Source: Escherichia coli (lineage in GTDB: Bacteria; Pseudomonadota; Gammaproteobacteria; Enterobacterales; Enterobacteriaceae). Taken from it: a stretch of DNA of 64,000 bases. Where the stretch lies: the NCBI RefSeq assembly GCF_003790525.1, contig NZ_CP033635.1; one strand, given 5' to 3'. A program made the translations under genes and the position numbers. The notes beneath the pieces were generated by a model. It was not told where the DNA came from. It saw nothing but the letters and a program-made list of their open reading frames with translations, and searched no databases. This document shows positions 44,797 through 57,404 of this stretch, piece after piece; position 1 is the stretch's first letter, and every line of letters starts with the position of its first letter.

Positions 44797-44950
44797 CGAA
44801 AAATTCCTGTAGTCGAAAATGTCAAAAATATCGCGACAAAGTACTCGCGACGGGCCTTTCGGGCAAGTGGTATTCGCACTTTTGCTGGTGCAAAAAAGGT
44901 GGTACTGTGCGCGCTCATCAATCCGGTGGTTAACCTTAAGAGAACAACGT

Positions 44951-45205
44951 ATGGAATGCCGTCCGGGTTGCGGGGCGTGTTGCACTGCCCCTTCAATTTC
45001 CAGCCCTATTCCCGGTATGCCAGATGGCAAGCCCGCCAATACGCCCTGCATTCAGCTTGATGAACAGCAACGCTGTAAAATTTTCACCTCGCCACTGCGG
45101 CCGAAAGTCTGTGCAGGCTTACAAGCCAGCGCTGAAATGTGCGGTAACTCGCGTCAGCAGGCAATGACCTGGCTTATCGATCTGGAAATGCTGACCGCGC
45201 CTTAA
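44951..45205 (+). CDS. yeiW: Small cysteine-rich protein YeiW (UPF0153 family)
   Basis: ORF 44819..45205 trimmed to [14 protein letters not shown] (84 aa); Cys cluster CxxxCxxCC; divergent from yeiP. Confidence 0.85.
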
Positions 45206-46383
45206 ACATCTTTAATCCGCAGTAAGCAAAACAGAGTGGCGATAATCATCACCATCGCAAACCAGAACACAGCGTGATAATTCCAGATCTCGGCGACGAT
45301 GCCCGCCACAGATCCTGCGATGATCCAGCCCACGCGCGACGTGTTGGTATAGAGCGTGGTGGCTGAACCTGCCTGACCGGGCATCAAATCCTGAAAATAA
45401 AGCATCCCGATGCCGCCCAGAATGCCAATAAAAATAGCATTTAGCAGCTGCAAGCCCAACAGAATGGCAGGTGAATGCGCCATCAGCATTCCTGCGTAAA
45501 AACAGACGCCACCCACGGCAGCAACGCGCATTAAGAAACGCTTACCCAGACGTTTGGCAAAATATCCGGCAATCAACATGGTCGGGATTTCCAGCCCGGC
45601 GGCGGTCCCCATCATCACGCCTGCCAGTTTCTCGGGAAGATGCAGTTCGTTGATAATAAATAGCGGCATGTTGATGATGTACAGGCTGTTCGAGCCCCAC
45701 ATCAATGTACAAATGACAAACAGCAGCAGCGTATCGCGACGGTTACGGCGCGGCGCTTCAACCGTGCCGGTCGCCAGCGGAAGCTCTTTTTGCATCGACG
45801 GTAAAAACAGCCACACCATCACGCCGCAAACAATAAACGCTACCGCTGCGCTCAGATACATTACCGTAAAGCTGAAACCCATCGCTAAGGCATAAGCCAG
45901 CGGCGGGCCAATGACCCATGCCAGTGAAACCTGAGCGCGTAAAAAAGAGCTGAACATCACCGCCTCACGTCCGGTTTTGTCGGCATGTTCACGTGCAAGG
46001 GCAAACATTTGCGGGTTAGCGGTCGAGCCAAAGCTGCTAAGAAAGACGCCAACGAATAACAAAACAAAGTAGTTGCGATTCCAGGCAAAAAGGGTGCAGG
46101 CCAGCACGCCTAACAGGCAGCAAAAGACAATCAGCGATTTGCGATCGCCGCGCTTATCAGAGCGCCCGGCGAGAAACTGACTGACCAGAATCCCAATGAC
46201 AGCGCTGCCGGTAAAGAAGAATCCCACCATCGCCGGACGGGCATGTACTTCATCGGTAAGGAAAATACTGAGTGTCGGGGTTTGCAAAGCGCCCGCAATA
46301 CCGGTGAGAAAGGCAACGATTAAAAACGCCGTCGAGGTCAGATCAAACGATTTCGCGCTGGAGACTGCGGGGGAGTTATGCAT
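45202..46383 (-). CDS. setB: MFS sugar efflux transporter SetB
   Basis: 393-aa 12-TM ORF. Confidence 0.92.
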
Positions 46384-54162: not shown

Positions 54163-54229
54163 GTTTCATTGCCGGATGTACGCCTTATTAAGCGTTGCAT
54201 CCGGCAATCGCGCTATTGCAGATTATTTT

Positions 54230-57349: not shown

Positions 57350-57404
57350 TGCGCGAGTTATGAGCCGGATAAGACGCGGTCAAGCGTCGAATCCGGCAAG
57401 ATTG

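Follow-up and report, generated by a model that had tools for sequence, protein, structure and literature searches.

The convergent gene pairs setB/yeiW and yejF/yejG of Escherichia coli are best understood, with a probability of roughly 0.72, as ordinary cases, without an intergenic terminator, of a class already known from bacteria: convergent genes that abut or overlap. Both pairs lie in the window, the 64,000-nucleotide stretch of E. coli DNA analyzed here. The 3' overlap of the transcripts in each pair is supported by published data, which for setB/yeiW consist of a listing based on RNA-seq coverage.

Geometry of the two junctions

As the basis for annotation we used the RefSeq record NC_010498.1 (E. 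coli SMS-3-5), which is 100% identical to the window in reverse complement and agrees with both the raw sequence and the lists of open reading frames (ORFs). The features referred to below are collected in Table 1. The initial annotation had proposed that yeiW and setB overlap by about 4 nt. This figure is exact, with sequence, ORFs, and RefSeq all giving the same TTAA tetramer, in which the yeiW stop (TAA) occupies 45203-45205 and the minus-strand setB stop (TAA) corresponds to plus-strand TTA at 45202-45204. The same three sources agree equally well on the second pair, whose ends had been placed about 3 nt apart: the trinucleotide GCG separates the yejG stop (TAA, 32351-32353) from the yejF stop (TGA, plus-strand TCA at 32357-32359). 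K-12 MG1655 shows identical geometry at both junctions (setB, 2263863-2265044; yeiW, 2265041-2265295; yejF, 2276300-2277889; yejG, 2277893-2278237), and K-12 coordinates were converted to window positions by subtraction from 2310246. Of 5426 complete E. coli genomes, 5413 contain a 2.5-kb part of the window, with 95 to 100% identity. Besides the Pfam matches listed in Table 1, the yeiW product matches PF03692 (CxxCxxCC; 33.5 bits versus a cutoff of 23) and the yejF product matches ABC_tran (E 1.8e-64).

Table 1. Features at and around the convergent junctions, with positions in the window
Feature	Position	Strand	Length	Details
yejG sigma-70 promoter	31713-31741	+		TTGATG-17-TATCAT; in the bcr-yejG spacer; promoter scan
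yejG CDS	32009-32353	+	114 aa	RefSeq; Pfam PF13989 YejG, E 5.8e-51
Spacer between yejG and yejF stops	32354-32356		3 nt	GCG
Perfect 9-bp inverted repeat	32354-32381			GCGTCAGCT-N10-AGCTGACGC; covers the spacer plus the stop and final codons of yejF
yejF CDS	32357-33946	-	529 aa	ATPase of ABC transporter YejABEF; RefSeq
Terminator-like hairpin inside yejF (antisense)	32519-32561	+		Tail TATTTGC; ends at the 3' end 32561
Rho termination region, antisense to yejF	32971	+		K-12 2277275(-); Rho score 3.76, p 2e-10 (PMC7815308)
yeiW CDS	44951-45205	+	84 aa	YkgJ-family Cys-cluster protein; RefSeq
ORF-internal terminator-like hairpin in yeiW	44972-44995	+		GGGGCGTGTTGCACTGCCCC + TTCA; terminator scan; ends at the mapped premature 3' end
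Stop-stop overlap of yeiW and setB	45202-45205	both	4 nt	TTAA; holds the yeiW and setB stop codons
setB CDS	45202-46383	-	393 aa	MFS sugar efflux transporter; RefSeq; Pfam MFS_1, E 5.6e-44
mqo>eco spacer			149 nt	13- to 17-bp GCCGGATG-type palindrome and more REP-like units
ccmH>narP spacer			34 nt	Bidirectional terminator AAAAGA-GGCCCGATGG...CCATCGGGC-TATTTT
yejO>tRNA-Pro spacer			102 nt	Bidirectional terminator AAAAAACCAACC...GGTTGGTTTTTT
yejK>rplY spacer			138 nt	REP unit and bidirectional terminator AAAAAACCCCGC...GCGGGGTTTTTT
psuT>yeiL spacer			67 nt	REP-like palindrome
nupX>yeiI spacer			55 nt	REP-like palindrome

By annotation, the window holds eight convergent pairs, six of them in addition to the two abutting ones. 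The suggestion that most of these other pairs are separated by a REP unit or a bidirectional terminator holds for all six, in each of which the genes are separated by a REP-like palindrome, by a bidirectional terminator of the A-tract/hairpin/T-tract type, or by both; the REP-like palindromes are those of mqo>eco, yejK>rplY, psuT>yeiL, and nupX>yeiI. At the setB/yeiW and yejG/yejF junctions, the terminator scan found no canonical terminator on the relevant strands, and no REP-like motif (an imperfect palindrome resembling GCCGGATG...CATCCGGC) lies within 40 nt of either. A search of Rfam 15 at the gathering score likewise returned no family at either junction, its matches in the whole window being tRNA-Pro and the L25 leader only. 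Because neither junction has a terminator-like site or a REP, full-length mRNAs must end inside the partner gene. One overlap and one near-abutment among eight convergent pairs is unremarkable; the arrangement is not rare.

Conservation of the junctions in Enterobacteriaceae

The gene for MepS lies between the two junctions, and a genome scan with MepS yielded 80 loci, which belong to about 25 Enterobacteriaceae genera. At each locus the four orthologs were located and extended to their stop codons, both junctions being covered where synteny holds. Protein identity of the orthologs across these approximately 25 genera is 75 to 90%, and yeiW orthologs are present in at least 60 species loci. 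The exact 4-nt overlap of setB and yeiW occurs in 45 of the 50 species loci in which both C termini are complete (TTAA in 24, TTAG in 21). The exceptions are K. pneumoniae, which has the same C termini with a 39-nt spacer, and four species with insertions of 1.2 to 3.2 kb. The gap between yejF and yejG measures 3 nt in 64 of 73 species loci and 1, 1, 2, 5, 5, 10, 12, 13, and 15 nt in the remainder; read on the yejF sense strand, the 3-nt spacer is CGC in 35 cases, CGG in 10, CGT in 7, and CGA in 2. A change in the length of this spacer would alter neither protein; nonetheless, 64 of the 73 species retain the 3-nt length.

Judged by comparison of these loci, both geometries are ancient, predating the radiation of the Enterobacteriaceae and kept since the common ancestor of the approximately 25 genera. 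Unlike the geometry, the terminator-like hairpins embedded in yejF and in yeiW are lineage specific. The setB/yeiW overlap itself is dispensable, since K. pneumoniae has the same C termini 39 nt apart. Conserved C-terminal residues (KDV-stop in setB, AP-stop in yeiW) explain most of the conservation of the geometry, and protein constraint alone does not fully explain the conserved 3-nt spacer.

Transcripts across the junctions

The hexamers of the yejG promoter are identical to those given for the constitutive RpoD promoter of this gene by Shimada et al. 2014 (PMC3946193). For the 3' ends of transcripts we relied on the Term-seq data of Adams et al. 2021 (PMC7815308), which cover MG1655 under three conditions, with Rho-dependent regions mapped by means of bicyclomycin; the supplementary 61-nt sequences of that study span positions -50 to +10 around each 3' end. 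The K-12 data contain a strong 3' end at 2277685(-), designated "antisense yejF," with scores of 212916 and 168450 (PMC7815308). This position corresponds to 32561 in the window, within ...AGCGUCAAUAUUUGC, and lies 208 nt beyond the yejG stop and 7 nt after an 8-bp stem (TTGATGCT, 32519-32526; AGCGTCAA, 32547-32554) belonging to a hairpin that folds at -12 kcal/mol. At least seven of the eight pairs of this stem are found in only 8 of 52 distinct sequences, and conservation of the hairpin is limited to Escherichia and a few further taxa. The Rho termination region on the same strand is located approximately 618 nt past the yejG stop. These data are most simply read as a yejG mRNA whose 3' untranslated region, 208 nt long, lies antisense to the final 68 yejF codons; part of the read-through would be halted further on by Rho. 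The 3' end at 32561 could be a site of intrinsic termination rather than a trimmed end. It may also stem from an independent antisense promoter inside yejF and not from yejG read-through.

The expectation in the initial annotation that transcripts extend antisense into the partner gene is borne out for yejG in K-12 by a Term-seq end 208 nt inside yejF. Its further statement that the head-on 3' ends leave no room for separate terminators is correct for the intergenic space but does not hold overall, as the yejG 3' end lies at a terminator-like hairpin within yejF. Mapping of 3' ends by Term-seq, which had been proposed as a check, places the yejG-strand end inside the partner as foreseen, but places the yeiW end inside its own ORF, at 44 nt. 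The yeiW end, at 2265251/2265250(-) and 44 nt from the start codon, is the dominant and sole one mapped for this gene, is not Rho dependent, and has an intrinsic-terminator score of 6.97 (PMC7815308). In the window it falls at 44995, 4 nt after the hairpin GGGGCGTGTTGCACTGCCCC (44972-44991). Because this sole mapped end is premature, many yeiW transcripts never reach setB. Selection on the ORF-internal hairpin was considered and rejected: conserved Gly-Ala...Ala-Pro codons dictate four of its pairs, and the central pair, which is free, is present in 21 of 63 sequences versus 14.8 expected, which is no evidence of selection.

The Term-seq supplements of Adams et al. (PMC7815308) list no 3' ends for setB, full-length yeiW, or yejF, or antisense to yejG, and none of the four gene names is present in the SMRT-Cappable-seq supplements. 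A hairpin at the setB/yeiW junction was also rejected as a candidate, the sequence giving a weak A-U stem only and folding z-scores of -0.9 and -0.06. The proposed transcript overlap is corroborated for both pairs by ExcludonFinder, which names "setB-yeiW" and "yejF-yejG" as convergent excludons; its Table 1 gives 165 such pairs for MG1655, detected in 50% or more of the 58 RNA-seq datasets (PMC12288877). The coverage criterion of this program is almost automatic for pairs without spacing. For the three transcripts other than that of yejG (setB, yeiW, and yejF), we infer read-through from logic and from this coverage-based listing.

On the strand opposite yeiW, setB and yeiP share an orientation, with yeiW lying between them. 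The trio setB-yeiW-yeiP is absent from the three E. coli noncontiguous operons given in PMC12288877, and a terminator-like hairpin at 44851..44830 on the setB/yeiP strand could block read-through to yeiP.

If the two pairs are ordinary convergent neighbors, transcription of yejG from its constitutive sigma-70 promoter would pass the stop codon and enter yejF as untranslated antisense RNA. Its dominant 3' end would be formed 208 nt in, at the hairpin embedded in yejF, with a region of Rho-dependent termination approximately 400 nt beyond. The transcripts of setB, yeiW, and yejF would also end in the partner gene, probably mainly because Rho acts on the antisense tail, which is not translated, and exonucleases then trim the RNA. 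The geometry would most simply be kept since insertions or deletions at the junction would damage the conserved C terminus of one or both proteins, and its conservation need not reflect regulation by the overlap. Regulatory effects are possible, for instance through polymerase collision or through cleavage of the duplex by RNase III, but are likely to be small in the laboratory.

The inverted repeat at the yejG/yejF junction

This perfect 9-bp repeat gives a hairpin of about -17 kcal/mol whichever strand is transcribed, and a U-tract is absent from both strands, the tails being GTATACTCCT (plus) and TTAAAAAGGA (minus). The window contains 15 distinct perfect inverted repeats of at least 9 bp, this one included. 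The repeat might be a selected RNA element, a hairpin lacking a U-tract at which polymerases coming from both directions would pause, so that head-on collisions are positioned there, and/or which would shield the 3' ends of both mRNAs from exonucleases; it would then stand in for a bidirectional terminator. We regard this reading as doubtful. The perfect stem lies exactly at the junction, most of the other repeats of this length in the window are terminators, and the RNA polymerase (RNAP) collision model calls for a gene-boundary hairpin of just this kind, with nothing more than a hairpin required for the pause (Wang et al. 2022, bioRxiv 10.1101/2022.10.23.513370). Against this, the Term-seq data give no 3' end at the hairpin for either strand (PMC7815308), and its arms are mostly fixed by conserved codons (TRQL, S-stop).

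The comparative data on this element are divided. In an ungapped alignment of 65 sequences, 88.1% of cells are paired (88% for 60 distinct orthologous sequences), compared with 84.7 +/- 0.6% in shuffles, of which 0 of 500 were as high, and with 15 to 36% in slid controls; the shuffle control is, however, inflated by relatedness. Changes on both sides of a pair occur in 23 cells versus 8.2 expected, but covariation is confined to two of the nine pairs, and RNAalifold yields no consensus structure. Pair 9-36, formed by the third base of a Thr codon and the third spacer base, is G-C in 34 sequences, A-U in 6, and C-G in 6. Conservation is 92% and 88% at the first two bases of the spacer, although 10 to 12% of synonymous sites match the conservation of the spacer (0.92, 0.88, 0.64). 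In Cedecea, which has a 10-nt gap, an 11-bp hairpin forms with a noncoding 3' arm. Nevertheless, only 23 of 73 species have a junction fold within the top 5% of local folds along yejF. In 36 of the 73, all of which retain the 3-nt gap and among which are Enterobacter, Kosakonia, and K. pneumoniae, the fold does not stand out (worse than 25% of blocks).

As a general cause of the conserved 3-nt gap, the junction hairpin was rejected on the lack of an RNAalifold consensus, on its unremarkable fold in about half of the gap-keeping species, and on a level of spacer conservation within the range of synonymous sites. The repeat is a possible clade-restricted boundary element and does not explain the conserved spacing. 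It is unlikely that a selected boundary hairpin without a U-tract replaces a bidirectional terminator in Escherichia, Citrobacter, Salmonella, Kluyvera, and some others; if it did, the covariation between the Thr codon base and the third spacer base would be the signature of such a hairpin.

Possible regulation by transcript overlap

Alternatively, the pairs might be functional excludons, in which 3' antisense overlap leads to mutually exclusive expression through RNAP collision and/or RNase III, and the conserved geometry would be explained by this function. We consider this improbable. Both pairs belong to the published E. coli excludome, whose pairs show, as a set, less single-cell co-expression and higher synteny than other neighbors (PMC12288877). 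The geometry is kept in about 25 genera, but setB and yeiW stand 39 nt apart in K. pneumoniae and 1.2 to 3.2 kb apart in four other species. The yejG gene is constitutively transcribed and has a strong 3' end inside yejF. Although yeiW is inducible, with a promoter reporter up 4.3-fold with vanillin, most detected yeiW transcripts end early, at +44, and there is no obvious logical connection between what the two partners do. In p19 capture of double-stranded RNA, a method insensitive to 3' overlaps, the entries listed include none for yeiW, setB, or yejG and one low-count hotspot in the middle of yejF, approximately 750 nt from the junction. The authors of ExcludonFinder state that p19 validation was not feasible for convergent excludons (PMC12288877).

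The reading that the abutments are annotation artifacts (the small yeiW or yejG being unreal, or a stop miscalled) is extremely improbable and can be excluded because all four products match Pfam families above the curated/gathering cutoffs; yeiW and yejG are both small and poorly characterized y-genes, but there are full-length orthologs with 63 to 100% identity and retained stop positions in dozens of genera, and for yejG both a promoter and a strong 3' end of the transcript are on record.

Discussion

As ordinary convergent neighbors without an intergenic terminator, setB/yeiW and yejF/yejG can be compared with several known systems. Lillo and Krakauer 2007 described 4-nt convergent stop-stop overlaps with a shared tetranucleotide of CTAA, TTAA, CTAG, or TTAG (YTAR), reported 58 convergent overlaps in E. 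coli, and noted that the terminators of overlapping convergent genes must sit in the coding sequence of the partner (PMC2174442). The setB/yeiW pair is a textbook member of the YTAR class, in which TTAA, or TTAG in other genera, holds both stops, whereas yejF/yejG is not a member but a near neighbor, with a 3-nt gap and no shared tetramer. The likeness to convergent excludons (PMC12288877) is that both pairs are named as such and that the yejG-strand 3' end inside yejF fits the definition. The defining trait of an excludon is mutually exclusive expression, and what is reported for the two pairs here is transcript overlap.

Bidirectional intrinsic terminators between convergent genes, together with an RNAP-collision model, were reportedly described by Ju et al. 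in 2019. The symmetric hairpin at the yejG/yejF boundary resembles such terminators in that it can form in both transcripts, but it differs from them in having neither correctly oriented A-tract/U-tract flanks nor a mapped 3' end, and setB/yeiW is without any junction hairpin. The true bidirectional terminators of the window (ccmH>narP, yejO>tRNA-Pro, and yejK>rplY) look quite unlike the yejG/yejF hairpin. The suppression by Rho of transcription that is antisense or untranslated, together with trimming of the RNA by exonucleases back to a hairpin, is said to have been described by Peters et al. in 2012 and by Dar and Sorek in 2018. The yejG transcript is similar, with a Rho region approximately 618 nt past the stop codon and a stable 3' end upstream of it at a hairpin, although the Rho dependence was measured genome-wide (PMC7815308) and not for the yejG transcript specifically.

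The arrangement is already known, the class having been described since the 2000s and both pairs having been named in a genome-wide map in 2025. To this the present analysis adds a worked example with exact coordinates, a geometry shown to be ancient, and a yejG mRNA tied to a 3' end and a Rho region within yejF. Were reciprocal regulation to be demonstrated, more interest would attach to the pair formed by constitutive yejG and the YejABEF peptide/microcin C importer.

Terminator-like elements within and beyond yeiW

We located a terminator-like hairpin inside yeiW, 22 to 44 nt into the open reading frame, where the codons of the Cys-cluster motif make up its stem. In the published Term-seq data for K-12 MG1655, the 3' end at this hairpin has an intrinsic-terminator score of 6.97 and is Rho independent (Adams et al. 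2021, PMC7815308). Transcription could terminate prematurely or be attenuated at this hairpin, or a short RNA could originate from it. It is not kept as a hairpin across other genera, its central pair being present in 21 of 63 sequences versus 14.8 expected.

On the strand shared by setB and yeiP, another terminator-like hairpin immediately precedes the Shine-Dalgarno sequence of yeiP (efpL), about 34 nt ahead of the start codon. This hairpin could either stop setB read-through once it has passed the whole of yeiW in the antisense direction or serve as a yeiP leader element. With setB and yeiP on the same strand and yeiW in between, the layout resembles that of a noncontiguous operon.

Table. 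Elements near the two convergent junctions and elsewhere in the window (window coordinates unless stated otherwise)
Feature	Position	Strand	Remark
Terminator-like hairpin GGGGCGTGTTGCACTGCCCC then TTCA, within yeiW	44972-44995	+	Coincides with Term-seq 3' end
Terminator-like hairpin GTCGCGAGTACTTTGTCGCGAT then ATTTTTGACA	44851..44830	-	Between yeiW and yeiP
Perfect 9-bp inverted repeat GCGTCAGCT-N10-AGCTGACGC	32354-32381	Both	Exactly at yejG/yejF junction
Term-seq 3' end, K-12 2278567(+)	~31678	-	Adjoins bcr stop (31673-31675)
RpoF SELEX peak in setB	K-12 ~2262454 (older genome coordinates)		
psuT and nupX 3' ends with downstream REP-like palindromes	54163-54229 and 57350-57404		
L25 ribosomal-protein leader upstream of rplY	27749-27774	-	Rfam
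tRNA-Pro	23960-24033	-	Rfam

The yejG/yejF junction and the yejF strand

The inverted repeat at the yejG/yejF junction takes in the 3-nt spacer together with the stop codon of yejF; it carries no U-tract. It shows some covariation, with one pair occurring as G-C, A-U, and C-G, and is strong in only about one-third of species. Farther along the yejF strand, the Term-seq 3' end beside the bcr stop codon, which has low scores of 1086 and 3147 (PMC7815308), falls 13 nt past the bcr terminator hairpin GGAAGCcttttaGCTTCC. Either yejABEF read-through running antisense over all of yejG (~680 nt) or a separate transcript of the bcr-yejG spacer could account for this end.

Capture of double-stranded RNA with p19 has yielded one low-count sense-antisense 22-mer pair, UUCAGGUUGCCUUCCCCAUUCG, in mid-yejF (window ~33100-33125). 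With the stop codon of yejF about 750 nt away, the pair is past the published Rho termination region at 32971 on the yejG strand, which hints at antisense RNA farther inside yejF than that region.

Other elements in the window

The C-terminal coding sequences of psuT and nupX, two NupC-family transporter genes, are near-identical, and downstream of both genes a REP-like palindrome faces a convergent gene; together, gene and palindrome look like a duplicated module. An Rfam search of the whole 64,000-nt window found no known RNA families other than the L25 leader and tRNA-Pro.

The setB 3' end at nonabutting loci

Within setB, a genomic SELEX study recorded weak binding of the RpoF (sigma-28) holoenzyme, classed as an intragenic peak (intensity, 6.2). 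Among the Enterobacteriaceae loci surveyed for orthologues, setB and the yeiW homologue are separated by 1.2 to 3.2 kb in L051, L067, L073, and L078 and by 39 nt in L070 (Klebsiella pneumoniae). The YeiW matches at these five loci are only 64 to 73% identical and may be paralogues. A G+C-rich palindrome directly follows the setB stop codon in the nonabutting species (e.g., TAAGGCGAGCGCTGCTCGCCTTATGG in Yokenella), which suggests that a conventional hairpin terminator arises after setB once space permits.
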